A model generated the notes under the pieces. It did not search any database. It saw only the letters and a program-made list of their open reading frames with translations, and was not told where the DNA came from. 64,000 nt of DNA from assembly GCA_951406725.2 (NCBI GenBank), contig OX597816.1, positions 33,232,001 to 33,296,000 on the forward strand, read 5' to 3'. The DNA is from Octopus vulgaris. Lineage: Eukaryota. The translations under genes and the position numbers were made by a program. Below are positions 31,150-54,720 of this stretch, in pieces (position 1 is the stretch's first letter; every line of letters begins with the position of its first letter).

Positions 31150-32195
31150 GATATATTAGTTTGATGCTTGGGAAGGTGAGAAAGTCTTTTCCATTTTGAG
31201 CCTACACTCTTCAACAGAAAAGAACACAAGGGAATAAACAGAGAGAGAATTAAAAAATCTTGTGGATTTAGCATTGAATTTTGGCAACTGGTTGGACAAG
31301 GGTAGTTAGAGAGGAGAGCTAGGAAAAAGGGGAAATAATAAACTACTGGTGGTCCCAAAGCGAAGACATGTCTGTGTGTATGTGAGAGTGCATAAGTGTG
31401 TGTGTGTGGATAGCGGCTGGTGACTTTGACGTGCAGACGTGTGCATATGTGTGTGTGTATGCCTGTAATGTGTGGGTGTGTGGATGATGGTGTAGATGCT
31501 GGGAAGTACTCAGTGCTAGTGTTTGGAGTGGTGTGGTGTGGTGGTGTGGTTGTGTGATGCGGTGTCTTGTGGTGTTTTGGGGGTTTGGTTATGTGAGGGT
31601 GGGGTGTGGTTTTGGGGTGAGGATGTTGGATGGAGTGAGGATGTGATGGTTAGGGTGAGGATGAGGGGGTTGGGGTGTGGTATGTGGGAATGGGATGTGT
31701 GTGGGTGGGGTGTGGATTGAGAGGGTATCGATGGATAGGAGTGAAGAGAGGAAGTAGATGTCAGATGAAGAGAGTGGAGGAGGGGAATCAGATGAAGACA
31801 GTAGGGGAGGGAGTTGAGCTCATGTGGTGCAAAAGAGCGGAGAGAACATTAATTCCTGTTCACAGGGGGAGTCCAGATGGCCCCTGTGCAAAGACAAACC
31901 GAACACAGACATGTGTTGTAATGAGTGACTGGTAGAGTGGAATTGGTGCGAGACTGGGGTGTCATTGCTGAGTCTAATGTCTTGGAGGTGCTCTGCGGAC
32001 CAGTCTGCCAAGTGGTGTCTGATTTGACCGATGTACAGAGAAGGACAGAAAGAGCAGGAGATGCAGTAAATGGCATTGTTAGAAGTGCAGGTAAAGGGGT
32101 CATTAACATGATAGGGATGATGATGGGTGCCTGTGAAGATGGTGGTGTTGGAGAAGTAGGGGCAAGTGTGGCAGCATGTAGGATATTGGAATAAC
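31150..32195 (-). mobile_element. Penelope-like element 3' part: GIY-YIG endonuclease + pseudo-LTR
   Basis: PFTCTSNNAIYCISCSFCPSLYIGQIRHHLADWSAEHLQDI..PVSHQF (YIG at 32027-32035), followed by a C/A-rich UTR and a hammerhead-like relic. Confidence 0.85.
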
Positions 32196-32600
32196 TTTAA
32201 GTATTATTTAATCTCTAATACACTTGATTCATTTGCTAATAGGAGTTAGTGATAGAAATCATGTGAGGTAAATAGTATTAGAATTTCTTCAGATAGAGAA
32301 TTAAATAATACAAATAGTTTTATATGATTGCTTGTCTGAAGAATTTCTAATAGGAGATGTTTTATATTTTTTTTCCTACATGTACAATTTTTTAACACCT
32401 ATATGAAAATAAAAAACGAGTAATGCTGAAAACAATCTTTTTTTCCATATATTATTACTCTGCAAAAGTATTTTCCTGTGCTTTCTACTCTCAAGCATAC
32501 AAGAGCATTACATCTATGTACATATTTAGAATACTGGAATATGCATATGCATGTCAAGAAGACACAGCTTGAATTTTAACAGTATATATATATATACACT

Positions 32601-35962: not shown

Positions 35963-36238
35963 CGGTGGGCTTCTTTCAGCTTCCATCTACCAAATCCATT
36001 CACAAGGCTTTGGTTGGTCTAAGGCTATAGTTGAATGCAGTTTCTCAAGGTTCCACACAGTGGGACTGAAACTGGAACTATGTGGTTAGGAAGTAAGCTT
36101 CTTACCTCACAGCCATGCCTGTTTATTTATAGAATGATTTTGTCAGATAGGTGTGAAAGGCTAGATCTGGCTGGCCTGAATATAAAGCAGGTAGAACATT
36201 TTGGCAGGCTATGGCTGGTATAAATGTTACGGTGTTAT
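35240..36238 (-). mobile_element. MITE family 1 split by a SINE A (about 35330-36120, minus) and microsatellite expansion
   Basis: Flanking pieces match the reverse complement of 9587-10210; SINE A tail and head are recognisable on either side of TA-rich DNA. Confidence 0.6.
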
Positions 36239-36540
36239 GTGATAAGATTTTTAAACAATTGTCTGCCCTCCAGAGATTGATAGGATAATACTTAAAGGGA
36301 ATAAGATGATTAAATAAACAGAGCTGAGATTTTTGTGAGTAGATGTATGAGGTGGTCAGATTAAAAGATAAGATAAGGAATGGTGAGTTTTTAATTCTTT
36401 TAGGAAGGTCATAAATAATTAAATGCTTACGTTTGTCCTCTTACTTTTGTCTTGGAAAAATGAAATACTCTTTATAAGATATATGAAGATATACATGTAT
36501 GCGTATATACGTATACGATAATAAAATGAATGATAAACGT

Positions 36541-36843
36541 TGCCCTTTTCAAGCCTAGCCAGGCTCATGGGCCCGGTTTCCCGGTTTCTGTGGCGTATGT
36601 GTTCTCCCTAGCTGGACGGGACGCCAGTCCATCGCAGCATTCCTCAAGAAACAGAAGAGAGAGTGAGAGAAAGTTGTGGCGAAAGAGTAGAACAGGGGGA
36701 TGCCACCACCCCCTACTGGAGCCTCATGGAGCTTTTAGGTGTTTTCGCTCAATAAACACACACAACACCCGGTCTGAGAATCAAAACCACGATCCTCCAA
36801 CCGTGAGTCTGCTTCCCTAACCAATGGGCCATTGCGTCTCCAC
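36541..36843 (-). mobile_element. SINE, head D + tail 3
   Basis: Reverse complement head GTGGAGACGCAATGGCCCATTGGTTAGGG matches 60705; tail matches 10694-10790. Confidence 0.85.
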
Positions 36844-37606
36844 ATATACATACACACACACATACACATTCATTTGAACACACACACACACAAACATATA
36901 CATATACATATTTGCATATAGACATGTATGCACCTGCACATGTACACACACACACACACACACACACAAACATACACACAAAAGTTAATGGTCTAGTATA
37001 CATGCCCATACAATATGTGAATATGCGTATATGTCTGAATCACCCCTCATTGTATATAAGTGTTCTTAATTTTATAAGTCGAGGAAATTTTTTGTCAACC
37101 ATTTAAGCAAGTTTTATATTTCTGAATATATTTTTCTTCCATCATTATTTGTTTTTGTTCCTTATTCGTGAAAAACTATATCCTTTCAATTAAATTCTTC
37201 AGGGAACATTCTTTGATTTGTAGACTGGTACCCTAGTTCCCTGTCCAGCTGCAACAATTTCAACTCTATATATTTCAAATGCTATAATTATCTTCTCATT
37301 CTTATTTGATAAGCCCAACCAGAATGGATAGAATTGGTTATATAAGTTAAAAAAATTTAAGATATCAAAATAAAACATTGCACATTTTATCTTTTAATTT
37401 TTCTAAAAATATTAGAACAACACCTTTAGTATTATTGTGTATTTCACCTGTCTTTTGTTTATATAGCTACATTCAAATATATATATAATATAATATAATA
37501 TAATATAATATATAAATGAATAATGTATATATATATAACATATATATATATATATAATATATATATATATATAAATATGTATATAAATACATATATATAT
37601 ATATAA

Positions 37607-37639
<33 letters not shown>

Positions 37640-37640
37640 A

Positions 37641-37683
<43 letters not shown>

Positions 37684-37778
37684 TATATATATTTATATAT
37701 GCATATATATATATTTATGTACATATATATATATATACAGAGAGAGAGAGAGAGAGAGAGAGATTATATATGTATGTA

Positions 37779-38150
37779 TTCTTTTATTTTTTTACTTGTT
37801 TCAGTCATTTGAATGCAGTCATGCTGGAGCATCACCTTTAGGCGAATAAATTGATGCCAGGACTTATTCTTTGTGAGCCTAGTACTTATTCTATCATTCT
37901 CTATTGCCAAACCGCTAAGTTATGGGGACCATAAACACACCAAAATCAGTTGTCAACAATGGTGGGGTGACAAACACAGACACACACAGACACACACGCA
38001 CACACACACACACATATGACTGGTCTCTTTCTGTTTCTGTCTTCCAAATCCACTCAGAAGTCTTTGGGTGACCTAAGCCGATAGTTGAAAACACTTGCCC
38101 ATGATGCCATGCAGTGGGACTGAACCTGGGAACATATGGTTGGGAAGCAA
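37779..38150 (-). mobile_element. SINE family A
   Basis: Reverse complement matches the consensus. Confidence 0.85.
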
Positions 38151-38452
38151 TCTATATGTAAGTAGGAAGTTATAGATATCTCATATTTATCATTTTACAG
38201 CTGCTTTCCATGCTGGATGGATAATTGTTGTACCAATATTTTACATGTGTTGGGGGACCACACCTCTTTTGAAAATATTGCATTTGACTTGGTTTCTATG
38301 GGTGGAGGCATTCCTAATACTGACCATTTTACAGAGTGTACTCTGTGTTTAAGCGAGGCACCAATACAAGAGAGCACAAATGTGAGACATTATGGAGATG
38401 TACTTGCATAGCACGTGACTTGATCTGAGATCGTGTGCTGGGATGAAAACAA

Positions 38453-38704
38453 TTGCAGCATGGAAGGTGTTTATAAGCCAGTTAAGAAGCACACAAAACC
38501 GTTAGATTCACTTCAACATTAAAATTTAATTTGTCAAAATATTTTCGTTGCTTTGAGACCACGACCTGTTCACTGACAAAGCTTTGAACAGGTTGCAGTC
38601 TCAAAGCGATGAAAATATTTTGACAGATTAAATTTAAATGTTGAAGTGAATCTAACAGTTTTGTGTGTTTCTTAACTGGCTTATAAACACCTTCAATGCT
38701 GCAA
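38453..38704. mobile_element. Foldback element, ~120 bp arms, 12 nt loop
   Basis: 38453-38572 is the near-perfect reverse complement of 38585-38704. Confidence 0.9.
38530..38580 (-). ncRNA. Candidate minimal type I hammerhead ribozyme (G3-C8 variant)
   Basis: TTTGTCA-GTGAACA-G-GTCGT(ggtctcaaa)GCAAC-GAAA-ATAT-TT-TGACAAA: perfect 7-bp stem I, 5-bp stem II with one mismatch, palindromic loop III. Confidence 0.55.
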
Positions 38705-39224
38705 ATCTGAGACAATTACTGAGAATGTAAAACTTATGTCTTTGGTAAGTGAGAAATCTGATGTGATAGGCTTATTAAAGAGTGATGAGGGACTTTGTGT
38801 CCCTACATGTACTGGAAGCAATATATAGTGAACCAAAATGAGGCACTAATACGATTTCTCATACCAGCAGCATAGTACAGTGAGAAAAAGAAATGATTGA
38901 GAAATATGCATCTGAGGCATGAGTGCTGAAGGTACAAGTACTAGCTGCTTGAGTGTTAGAAGCATGAGTAATAAAAAAAAGTAAGAGTTCCATGGTCAAT
39001 AAGGACATGAAAGATGGTGTTATGAATACTAGACTTATGAATAATAGTAAGAATGTGAGATAGAATAGTGTGTGATAGAAGAGTGAGTATGAGAGGCGTG
39101 TTAGATAAGACTATCAGTGAGCCAACAAATCTAAAATTGATAGAATTCATTATATGTATGCATGTGTATGTGTGTACACAGATATATCCCTAAATATATT
39201 TATAAAAAAGATCAAAGGTTTGTC

Positions 39225-39453
39225 TTGAGTCATTGGCTCATGAGGTCAGTTTCCCCGATTCTGTAGTGTATAAAATCCCCTACTACTGGACAGGATACTG
39301 GTCTGACACAGAATTACTCATTTAGCCAACTGAGTGGACAAGAGCAACATGAAATGACGTGGTTAGCTCAAGAAGAGACTACATCCCCGGATCAGAAACT
39401 GAAACAGATTTATGATCATAAGTGCAACAGCCAAAATCACTGACCCACATGCG
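39225..39453 (-). mobile_element. Diverged SINE, head C + tail 3
   Basis: Parallels 10694-10932 (TTACTCATTT..GCCA.CTGAGTGGAC). Confidence 0.65.
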
Positions 39454-39498
39454 TATACATGTGTATTTAAACATACATGCATATACACATATTTGTCA

Positions 39499-39843
39499 TT
39501 TACTTATTTCAAATCATTAGACTATGGCCATGCTGGGGCACTGCCTTGAAGAATGTTTAGTCGAATGAATCAGTCTCAGTACTTACATTTTTGTTAAGCC
39601 TGGTACTTATTCCATCGGTATTTTTTACCAAATTGCTAAGTTATGGGAATGTAAACACACCAACACTGTCAAGCAGTGGTGGGGGACAAACACAGATATG
39701 AAGACACAAACACATTCATACAAACACATACACACACACACACATACACGCATGCGCGCATGCACATACATATATATGATGGGCTCTTTTTCAGTTTCCG
39801 TCTGCCAACTGCATTTTGGTCATTATTCAAGTGCAGTAGAAGA
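39499..39843 (-). mobile_element. SINE A, head-truncated
   Basis: Reverse complement matches the body and tail. Confidence 0.8.
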
Positions 39844-39895
39844 TGCAGGTTGTATCTAATGGAAATGAGACTAGTACAAAAGAAAATAATAAAAA

Positions 39896-40062
39896 AGGCG
39901 TAGGAGTGGCCATGTGGTAAGTAGCTTGCTTACCAATCACATGATTCTGGAGTCACTCACACTGCATGGCACCTTGGGCAAGTGTCTTCTACTATAGCCT
40001 CGGGCCGATCAAGGCCTTGTGAGTAGATTTGGTAGACGGAAAACTGAAAGAAGCCCGTCGTA

Positions 40063-40127
<65 letters not shown>

Positions 40128-40362
40128 GTGTGTATATGTTTGTGTGTCTGTGTTCATCCCCCAACATCACTTGACAACCGATGCCGGTGTGTTTGCGTCC
40201 CTGTAACTTAGCAGTTTGGCAAAAGAAACCGATAGAATAAGTACTAGGCTTCCAAAGAATAAGTCTTGGTGTCGATTTGCTTGACTTAAAGGTGGTGCTC
40301 CAGCATGGTCGCAGTCAAATGACTGAAACAAGTAAAAGAGTAAAAGTGTAAAAAAGAGTAAA
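39896..40362 (+). mobile_element. SINE family A, full length
   Basis: Head AGGCGTAGGAGTGGCC through tail GACTGAAACAAGTAAAAGAG. Confidence 0.9.
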
Positions 40363-40783
40363 TAACTATTGCCTGCTGAATACCTGAATGCAAAATTTTA
40401 TTTTGCTCCTTACTTGTGCAAGTAAAAACACATCTTCCACCACTGATCTAAAACACTATAAAATGTTCACCACAAATGCCTGCCAGTTATCCCTATTGCT
40501 TGTCTCTCCTTGACATTAGTACATTATTTTCAGTCTCTCTTTCTTGCATTACTCTCTTCCTTCTTTCAGGCATTTCTCTTATTATTTGCTTCTTTCTTTC
40601 ACTATTGTACTCATTCTTCCTCATTTCTATCTTTCTCTCTTTCCTTATCTTCTTAATTTATTCACTATTTCTCGTATCAGATGACATAATTCTTTGAGGT
40701 TGATGTTTGTGTTGCAGCTGCTCTTGCACGAGAAATATTTTGCCATAGGAAAAAATAATCCCTTATTAAATCTCCTGAAAAGC

Positions 40784-41009
40784 TTAACCCTTTTGCTACC
40801 AGCATGGCTGAAACCTGCTCTGGCTCTGTAGTACAAATATCTTGTTTTCTTAAGTCTTGAATTAAAATCTTCCACCAAACCTTAGTCACAATTTATGTTC
40901 TTAACACGAGCTCAATAACTAAGTTATTTTACTAAGTTCTTTGTTATATTTAAAGTACTTGAAAGAAACACAGAGCATCTCAAAATAAATACAGTAATGA
41001 AAGGGTTAA
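40784..41009 (+). mobile_element. piggyBac-type MITE (family 2), complete
   Basis: TTAA|CCCTTTTGCTAC...GTAATGAAAGGG|TTAA; TTAA TSD and CCC/GGG ends. Sister copies at 62461-62691 and 49840-50057. Confidence 0.85.
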
Positions 41010-53399: not shown

Positions 53400-54720
53400 A
53401 TCACAGGGAAAGTCATTGCACAATTGATTTATGACATGGTTTTGTTCCTGGAAGAGGTGCCACAAATGCATTCTTCATAGTGAGTCTACTACAGGAAAAT
53501 ACTTGGCTAACAGTAAATCACTATTTCTGGGGGGTTTTTTTGTTTCTTTTTGAACTGGAGAAGGCATTTGAGGGTGTACCAGATACAGTTATCGTGTGGT
53601 CAATAAGGAAACTAAGCACTAGCAAAAGAGTTGTGGAAGTTGAGCAGAAAGATACGGTGAGTAAACTGTGGGTCAAGAATGGCTTCAGTGAGGTATTTAG
53701 TATGAGAGTTGAAGTCAAGGGGTCAATTCTCAATCCCATCATATTCATGATGGTCCTACTGGACACAAAACAGTTTAAGAATGGATGTGCATTGGAACTC
53801 CTATATGGTGATAAACTAGTTCTTATAACTGAAGTTATAGAGGAATTAGACAGGCAGGGAAGAAATTCCAGGCAGGGAAGCTAAACTGTATTTAAAATTT
53901 TTTTTAGGCAAACTTAGCTAAGATGAAAGTCTTTTTTAATGGGAAGGAATACAGGACTTCAGCACGCTAATGGAATTGGCCTTGCTCAAAATGCATAAAA
54001 GATGTGAATATAAATTCCACATCCTTCACTTAATGTAAGCTATGTTCACATCAGAGATGTAGCAGAATCAGAGGCAGACAATCAGAAAATATAAGCTTCA
54101 TGTGTAAAAGATACAATGGAACACAGTGTTCAATGAACACACCAGAAATGGAGCTCCTTGAATGCCTTAGTGGTTCACTAAGAGCAGTTGATAGATTTTG
54201 CTAAGAGATGTCATCAGTAAATGTAGTGGGTGTTCAGCAAGCATAGTAGCCAGAGTAAGAATGAGTTAGAGAAAGTCGAAGGAGTTGTTACTGCTGATGG
54301 TAATACAGGTCTTTTCCCACAAAGTGAAAAGCAATATGTATTAGGACTGCACTGCAGCCTGACAGTGAGATGTGGGCCTTGAACAAAGAGGACATGAGAA
54401 GACTGGAAAGAAATGAAGCAAGTATGCTCTGTTTGCTGTGCATTGCAATTGAGCATAAATGACATAGCATAAATTTACTGAGAGAAAAATTGGGCATAGG
54501 TAGAATTAGAAATAGTGTGCAAAAAAGAAGATTGCACTGGTACAGATATATGATGCATATAGATCAGGAAAGCTCTATGAAGAAGTGTTGATCACAAAAT
54601 GTGGCTGGAGCTTTTGAAGGAAGAAAATCCAGGAAGACATTGGATGGAGTAGTGAAGGCTGAACTCAGGACCCTCAGCTTCACAGGTAAAGTCAAAGGAA
54701 TAGGATATCTGGTGATATGA
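53400..54720 (+). mobile_element. Decayed RTE-like LINE reverse transcriptase
   Basis: GFVPGRGATNAFFIV..ELEKAFEGVP..KGSILNPIIF..ELLYGDKLVLI, i.e. degenerate DLEKAFDRVP / QGSVLSPLLF / LYADDL, with many stops. Confidence 0.85.

Follow-up and report, generated by a model that had tools for sequence, protein, structure and literature searches.

The window, by which we mean the whole 64,000-nucleotide (nt) stretch of Octopus vulgaris DNA analyzed here (contig OX597816.1 of assembly GCA_951406725.2, positions 33,232,001 to 33,296,000 of the forward strand), carries a hairpin-shaped insertion at 38389-38704 that is flanked by target duplications of ~11-13 bp. Self-comparison of the window showed the arms of this hairpin to be 87.6% complementary across 258 nt, and the minus strand of its left arm (38530-38580) contains a motif shaped like a hammerhead ribozyme. 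We put at roughly 0.8 the probability that this insertion is dead and consists of two head-to-head copies of the pseudo-long terminal repeat (pLTR) of a Penelope-like element (PLE), a retrotransposon, and that the motif is the predicted minimal hammerhead of this element with a naturally flipped G3-C8 core pair. An earlier, sequence-only reading of the locus had started the element at 38453 and described it as two inverted hammerhead units. Its letters and positions for the motif (stems, core, loop, and GAAA) agree with ours; however, the insertion begins at ~38389, since the left arm has a 64-nt tail that is missing from the right arm, and the complete motif is present only in the left arm, the right arm beginning at nt 25 of the ~209-nt pLTR unit (positions in the unit are given below as unit nt). 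The features of the insertion are:

38379..38391, plus strand: left target-site duplication; 10 of its first 11 bases equal 38704-38714, with an AT-rich microhomology overlap with the element end
38389..38584, minus strand: long (left) arm, unit nt 13-209, 92% identical to a full-length short copy
38389..38452, minus strand: 64-nt tail, left arm only, the putative stretch between two reverse-transcription start sites
38389..38481, minus strand: remnant of the first 31 codons of the parent's open reading frame (ORF), from translation
38530..38580, minus strand: minimal type I hammerhead motif with a G3-C8 core pair and, in the window copy, one stem II mismatch
38580-38574 with 38536-38530, minus strand: stem I, 7 bp
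38573, 38568, and 38566, minus strand: G3, C8, and an inserted G, respectively
38565-38561 with 38551-38547, minus strand: stem II
From 38546, minus strand: GAAA, the palindromic A15.1-loop-U16.1, and U17 at 38537
38578..38585, no strand: short palindrome at the head-to-head junction, from the sequence and the arm limits
38585..38704, plus strand: short (right) arm, unit nt 25 to ~146, without G3, the 5' strand of stem I, and the tail
38704..38717, plus strand: right target-site duplication

The long arm contains 5' untranslated region (UTR), hammerhead motif, ORF start, and tail, and the unit that it matches is the pLTR of an autonomous parent element. In both arms of the window copy the start codon reads CTG. 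The 31-codon frame continues, at genomic locus L373, into an ORF with reverse transcriptase (RT) and GIY-YIG nuclease domains, and it aligns with the N-terminus of a sister family. At L373 the unit runs in frame into this ORF and a second unit lies 1.6 kb past the ORF end, while locus L377 shows an interrupted version of this arrangement for the loop-II subfamily to which the window copy belongs. Since the unit precedes the ORF in frame and recurs after it at these loci, we conclude that the ~209-nt unit, i.e., the 5' UTR plus the first 31 ORF codons, is the parent's pLTR, and we regard this origin as nearly certain. The sequence-only reading had derived the hairpin from an inverted Penelope pLTR and had suggested looking for copies beside PLE RT/GIY-YIG ORFs; both ideas were borne out by the units before and after the ORF at L373 and L377 and by the set of loci around L260 described next.

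The parent was reached from the short copies themselves. Six of 30 loci with the unit start share a long upstream sequence (one more shares part of it), which led to a GIY-YIG remnant and then to RT-GIY-YIG ORFs with the unit downstream. The longest frame, in the young subfamily, is that of L260, which encodes 1,025 amino acids (aa) with RT and GIY-YIG; proteins of this type match GIY-YIG with E~1e-4, at the Pfam cut-off, and their RT motifs are visible, with a weak match to RVT_1 (E=0.01). In the search with the young subfamily, 12 of 20 loci (L260-268, L277-279) have the unit after the ORF, its G3-C8 motif being intact; the other eight are six loci of the sister family and two fragments. The parent N-terminus aligns with that of the sister family at 35% over 144 aa, and the L260 translation has a CxxxCxxC linker and a CCHH nuclease motif. 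Over its core the parent RT is ~24% identical to the Neptune-type RT of the same genome, and the two are far apart in a quick tree. In a by-eye comparison with the supplement of Craig et al. (2021; PMC8557442), the compact linker plus nuclease look similar to its Nematis rows, and Neptune shares the CX2-5CxxC/CCHH motifs; we call the parent Nematis-like, a name read from motifs rather than from a tree with reference sequences.

Other candidate parents were rejected. Convergent pairs 2.7 kb apart (L061, L062) proved to be copies inside a larger composite repeat, none of the loci from a Pfam GIY-YIG search (n=30, mostly Neptune-type) had the unit as pLTR, and the sequence upstream of the L095 fragment belongs to an unrelated miniature inverted-repeat transposable element (MITE). 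Long copies of the older subfamily cluster on contig C16 (L196-L224), which holds 31 of 42 upstream-anchor matches although it makes up ~2% of the genome, whereas the top RT matches of the young subfamily are spread over many contigs; that C16 is a sex or low-recombination chromosome is a guess.

The motif at 38530-38580 has the parts of a minimal type I hammerhead, namely stems I and II, U4-G5-A6...A9, G12-A13-A14-A15.1, U16.1-H17, and a Watson-Crick pair between positions 3 and 8, but that core pair is G-C in place of the consensus C3 and G8. C3-G8 is treated as near-invariant in hammerhead searches, and G8 serves as the general acid of the ribozyme via its 2'-OH. An Rfam scan of 36000-41000 returned no hammerhead model at E<=10, only hairpin-type microRNA models below cut-offs. 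When a hammerhead descriptor that allows any Watson-Crick 3-8 pair was applied to dinucleotide shuffles of a 209-nt natural copy, it matched 1 of 20,000; with the palindromic loop as a further requirement it matched none of 20,000. The window motif is decayed, with a C-A mismatch in stem II and a folding z of -1.29, as compared with -3.07 for the parent motif and -3.06 for a cleaner short copy; its predicted cleavage site lies between 38537 and 38536. The ancestral stem II that the sequence-only reading had reconstructed by combining the two arms (GTCGC/GCGAC) proved correct, for the 31-nt motif from core to GAAA that contains it has 1,254 exact matches in the genome and its reversed control none. 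In contrast, the UUU triplet, which had been called atypical, is not so, since U17 also occurs in both octopus sister families, in two metagenomic relatives, and in several published PLE motifs, and is common in the table of Cervera and de la Pena (2014; PMC4209133).

The insertion pattern was surveyed in 66 loci in the first 40 Mb of contig C1 that were picked on a piece of the unit outside the ribozyme (26 distinct loci of the first 30 and 40 more, a few already-seen ones being skipped). The family is abundant: besides the matches to the 31-nt motif, a 24-nt piece of the unit start has 601 exact matches in the genome and a 24-nt non-ribozyme piece 6,057, again with none for the reversed controls. 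Parts of the unit are also present in contigs from runs labelled with four organisms, three of which were compared and matched. Results showed 35 head-to-head, 27 solo, and four complex loci. The 3' ends of the arms fall into two classes, ~146-153 and ~200-209 (ends at nt 135 are an alignment artefact of the reference copy), and it is because of these two classes, together with the two internal starts of the anole element described below (PMC11167929), that 38389..38452 is read as a tail. In 30 of the 35 head-to-head loci one arm reached nt 200-209 and the other ended at or before nt 160 (p=1e-5 against 50%), the remaining five being two long-long, two short-short, and one intermediate; the same asymmetry was seen in all seven kilobase-scale inverted young copies. 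As to targets, 45 of 65 loci lie within microsatellites, and 17 of the 20 others have an exact duplication of 7-14 bp.

A hairpin shape and TA-rich targets would also be expected if the insertion were a MITE or foldback DNA transposon whose motif had arisen by chance. The ends, however, are not mutual inverted repeats, 27 of the 66 copies are single arms, the duplications have no fixed length (7-14 bp), the parent has an ORF for RT and GIY-YIG, and the motif is beyond chance expectation. The in-frame link of the unit to the RT ORF at L373 refutes this explanation, whose remaining probability we consider negligible.

The 5' ends of the arms bear on the template. Among 109 aligned arm pieces, 57 start upstream of the core, no later than nt 18, and the region of the predicted cut (60/61), nt 54-65, holds no start at all, suggesting that most arms derive from RNA that was uncut at the motif. 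We propose that the parent would be transcribed from a start ~23 nt upstream of the core (unit nt 1), probably as capped RNA; the cap is suggested because 14 of the 23 loci without parental upstream sequence have one additional G immediately before the start (p=6e-6), as expected if a cap had been copied. The RT/GIY-YIG protein would then place a nick in each strand of AT-rich DNA, the two lying about 9-14 bp apart, and would prime one cDNA at each, one from a far internal start (~nt 205) and one from a near start (~nt 148). With uncut RNA as template, both cDNAs would run to the RNA 5' end and be joined head to head. Starts on the 5' copy of the unit would give insertions of 150-350 bp like that of the window, and starts on the 3' copy would give the kilobase-scale inverted forms. 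The hairpin thus most likely forms at insertion and not in the RNA, and we consider this two-nick, two-start origin somewhat more likely than not. It has a close precedent in the anole element PAc, whose protein cuts and extends both target strands, is a predicted dimer, and uses mainly uncut RNA, with two internal RT starts that bound a tail (Frangieh et al., 2024; PMC11167929).

An alternative for which the same arms provide some evidence is snap-back copying, i.e., that a cDNA folds on its terminal palindrome and copies itself (or that an antisense strand primes itself) and then joins the target near nt 148 by microhomology. Palindromes do stand at the junction (window 38578-38585; L260:1-350), self-priming has already been proposed for such elements (PMC3846280), and the arms share private variants: in a set of 35 two-armed insertions, counted after removal of 11 composite-repeat and 7 duplicate loci, 10 variants that are each present in <=5% of the family were shared by both arms of the same insertion. 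Yet in about 10 of the 30 long-plus-short pairs the arms are non-nested, each having more than ~20 nt that the other lacks, which argues against a single self-copy unless the center was deleted later. In addition, solo copies end at both sites, so that nt ~148 acts as a start site by itself. We therefore regard snap-back as unlikely.

The number of short copies raises a further possibility, namely that they are a self-propagating non-autonomous family, similar to a short interspersed element or a retrozyme and independent of the parent. There are thousands of them with fixed ends, they far outnumber the long copies, and parental upstream sequence accompanies them at just 1 of 66 loci. However, the short copies include both parental loop-II subfamilies (23 and ~38 of 62 arms) and track the parent lineages, which points to by-products of the parent rather than a separate family; moreover, the copies occur without upstream sequence and tandem arrays are not their usual form. 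An independent family is accordingly improbable, and by sequence the short copies look like by-products of the parent. Of the proposal that the hairpin derives from a pLTR or a retrozyme, then, the first half stands and the second does not, for the 66 loci failed to show head-to-tail tandem units with a hammerhead in each. Conversely, they share with PLEs the inverted pLTR, the optional one-sided tail, and the variable short target duplication.

Other repeats were noted in the genome as well. A composite repeat several kb long, which forms inverted structures of its own, has multiplied one head-to-head insertion that it contains (L022, L034, L043-L045, L051, L054-L057, L059-L062, L064, L065), and L105-L124 are copies of an abundant ~380-bp MITE with terminal inverted repeats of ~15 bp and TA targets, one of which holds a truncated unit.

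The core of the motif was followed both within the family and across lineages. A short copy and the young parent have the same core and stems; their differences within the motif are all in loop II, and about a dozen more lie outside it. In the dead copies 58 of 62 arms retain G3 and 56 of 62 retain C8, a level of decay that looks neutral, and the C3-G8 form is absent from the 17 genomic copies changed at both positions, which together indicate that the swap predates the family. For the same reason, comparing core with flank conservation across copies, which had been put forward as a way to refute the hammerhead, is not a valid test: our first set was biased, since the core had served to select half of its loci, and decay in the unbiased set is ordinary, so that the informative comparison is between lineages.

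Between lineages the 3-8 pair does change in a compensatory way. The sister family (locus L270; 57% protein identity) has C3-G8 together with compensatory changes in both stems, and its motif occupies the corresponding position, ahead of the homologous N-terminus. A third family (L382, L386) has U3-A8 at the matching place, and the three families form one clade in the quick tree (Shimodaira-Hasegawa-like approximate likelihood-ratio support, 99), in which the row of L353 was out of frame and disregarded. The tree also places a protein recorded under Octopus vulgaris 0.025 changes per site from an element of this genome. Metagenomic relatives have C3-G8 (L351, L353, L363) or U3-A8 (L350), and Neptune-type elements of the same genome carry U3-A8, C3-G8, and A3-U8 motifs (L087:2042-2082; 3' ends of L074, L083, L097, L070, L101, L082, and L088). 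Since C3-G8 or U3-A8 is found at the same place in sister lineages, the pair covaries, and the sequence-only view of a compensatory G3-C8 version of the hammerhead was sound. When 15 motifs were aligned, all 14 rows that have letters at these positions showed a Watson-Crick pair (UA 6, CG 4, GC 3, AU 1), with a covariation score of 0.69 as compared with 0.20 after shuffling (0 of 500 shuffles as high). Homology of the unit's motif to PLE hammerheads is, we believe, highly probable.

The sister PLE (L269-L274) is apparently active, with many intact ORFs of 1,310-1,312 aa that include a long Asn/Ser-rich insert, and with an intron-like stretch right after the stop codon. L097, L098, and L100 are intact Neptune-type elements that have a separate upstream ORF before a 781-aa RT-nuclease ORF and CCAAT/CRE/TATA-like boxes repeated in the 3' UTR, and L085:19-65 is a short element that has a U3-A8 motif and is not itself the pLTR of the adjoining ORF. 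The window also has a Neptune-type remnant, a GIY-YIG domain at 31823-32203 on the minus strand (33% to L097 over 67 aa), as well as plus-strand frames at 17389-17847 and 53435-53881 that by eye resemble fragments of RT from long interspersed elements. Self-comparison revealed no second copy of the hairpin element in the 64 kb, where the repeat search is dominated by microsatellites, above all by ~1.8 kb of almost pure AT microsatellite at 25800-27570 (GC 10% in 26001-28000).

Taken together, the findings allow a broader reading, which we offer tentatively and at somewhat less than even odds: that this is a natural, working G3-C8 family, that octopus PLEs have tried all four Watson-Crick pairs at positions 3 and 8, and that the almost constant coupling of a long with a short arm is the footprint of a protein dimer which, during a single insertion, primes at both internal starts. 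The ribozyme would most likely cut slowly, as a dimer through the palindromic loop III or with the help of protein, and would be dispensable for insertion. As regards folding, the sequence-only reading had warned that the long hairpin would mask the ribozyme; this applies to read-through of the dead window copy and not to parental RNA, because the latter has a single sense copy of the unit, and it is predicted to fold stems I and II free of competition. We would give an even chance to measurable cleavage by the parental motif.

Several observations speak against parts of this picture. The covariation figures are inflated by the choice of motifs, which were picked by eye or by a stem-pairing descriptor, some of them (among them Neptune-type ones) partly by a filter requiring the 3-8 pair; three rows are one family and several are misaligned, and the alignment shows consistency and not a probability. 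Among the metagenomic relatives the motif is present in only 4 of 22 loci, and many of these 22 end near the ORF. The core itself has drifted in relatives (A9C in L270 and L350, U4C in L101/L104, GCAA in L082/L088, and GAAT in L351), and loop III of L270 is non-palindromic; such drift would fit relaxed or lost catalysis as well as slow catalysis. Seven arm pieces start at nt 66-68, past the cut, and are possibly trimmed cleavage products. The 5' end of the unit falls exactly at a branch-point/pyrimidine/AG motif, making a splice junction an alternative to the capped start, though no splice joint to the unit start was seen in the assembled contigs, which do not cover the upstream repeats. Finally, the variants shared between arms, which one common template would explain, would fit snap-back copying or later gene conversion as well, and the clade name has the by-eye basis given above.

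A rival explanation accepts the pLTR origin and holds that the motif is catalytically dead or non-catalytic, its 3-8 pair and stems being kept for structure or protein binding, or just owing to the youth of the lineage. In its favor, the template of most arms was uncut RNA, presumably harmful core variants are present in relatives, among them the sister family, which is young and intact, G3-C8 restored the activity of mutants of other hammerheads only in part (PMC11167929, PMC8495972), and PLE minimal hammerheads are weak in vitro (PMC4209133). On the other hand, U4, G5, A6, G12, A13, and the neighbors of A14 are fixed and the 3-8 pair stays Watson-Crick at 45-57% protein identity, which points to a kept active-site geometry, and the anole element, which has a hammerhead that cuts, likewise copies mainly uncut RNA (PMC11167929). 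The core drift in sister lineages keeps the non-catalytic explanation alive, and we judge it a substantial possibility that falls a little short of an even chance.

If a natural working G3-C8 family exists, hammerhead censuses based on CUGANGA miss whole lineages. A G3-C8 lineage beside C3-G8 and U3-A8 sisters and an A3-U8 Neptune-type element in one genome is nature's own counterpart of the classic swap experiment, and it implies that hammerhead counts in animal genomes are probably too low. When other G3-C8 families were sought with a CATG loop, the one loop type covered, there were 150 matches as compared with 84 for the control, and no family among the 100 listed was convincing. The present family offers thousands of short, countable insertions for asking how head-to-head inverted PLE ends arise, and it is also suited to the question of what the hammerhead is for, given that the RNA copied is mostly uncut.

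One of the closest known systems is PAc, a Poseidon element of Anolis (PMC11167929). Like PAc, the octopus family has its hammerhead at the junction of pLTR and ORF and an ORF that begins within the pLTR; its optional tail lies between two (in octopus putative) internal RT starts, its targets are rich in AT, and its template is uncut RNA. The anole hammerhead cuts only with protein, C3G/G8C gives partial rescue, and cleavage is dispensable for insertion; G3-C8 is an engineered rescue mutant there and wild type in octopus. The tails differ also, being ~60 nt in octopus and 30-40 in PAc, and the parent protein has a CxxxCxxC linker that is absent in Penelope/Poseidon. As in the minimal hammerheads of metazoan PLEs (PMC4209133), the octopus motif is of type I, has an extra nucleotide between 9 and 10.1, a G10.1-C11.1 pair, a palindromic 15-16 region, and no stable stem III, lies in the pLTR, and is dispersed as thousands of single motifs and opposite-strand pairs. 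It differs from the hammerheads described there in its G3-C8 pair, the reported pair being C3-G8 and exceptionally U3-A8, and in a stem I of 7 bp instead of 4-5.

With the Nematis/Neptune PLEs (PMC8557442) the parent shares a single ORF with RT, Cys-rich linker, and C-terminal GIY-YIG with CCHH, as well as (TA)n targeting, tandem and inverted insertions, and a one-sided tail. Similar to the non-LTR retrozymes of animals (Li, Clavereau, and Pollet, 2026; 10.64898/2026.07.22.740005), the short copies are non-coding, hammerhead-bearing, and derived from PLE pLTRs, but retrozymes are head-to-tail tandems with a motif in each unit, while the octopus insertions, whether single or head-to-head, retain the first ORF codons. 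Natural covariation at 3-8 is known from U3-A8 hammerheads (Perreault et al., 2011; PMC3088659); the pair is a different one, G3-C8 and A3-U8 not being named in the part of that paper considered here. G3-C8 has been described as a mutant (PMC11167929, PMC8495972, PMC3884650), and no report of a natural G3-C8 family was found in the literature searched, which left out most subscription papers and the work of Lunse, Weinberg, and Breaker on PLE variants, which possibly lists it. An annotation of Octopus repeats has 31 recently active Penelope-like families and leaves ribozymes unmentioned in its main text (PMC13282606); PMC6765202 and PMC6466107 served as background only. An inverted pLTR, a one-sided tail, a target duplication of 8-10 bp, and an ORF start inside the pLTR are typical of PLEs (PMC3846280), and inverted pLTRs and tails have been described repeatedly (PMC8557442, PMC8969392). 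In kind, therefore, the octopus family is nothing new, since hammerheads in pLTRs, inverted pLTRs, and tails are already on record. What the comparison of sequences supports is that its unit carries a hammerhead of the PLE pLTR type, with a natural G3-C8 pair, that has been multiplied as short head-to-head insertions.
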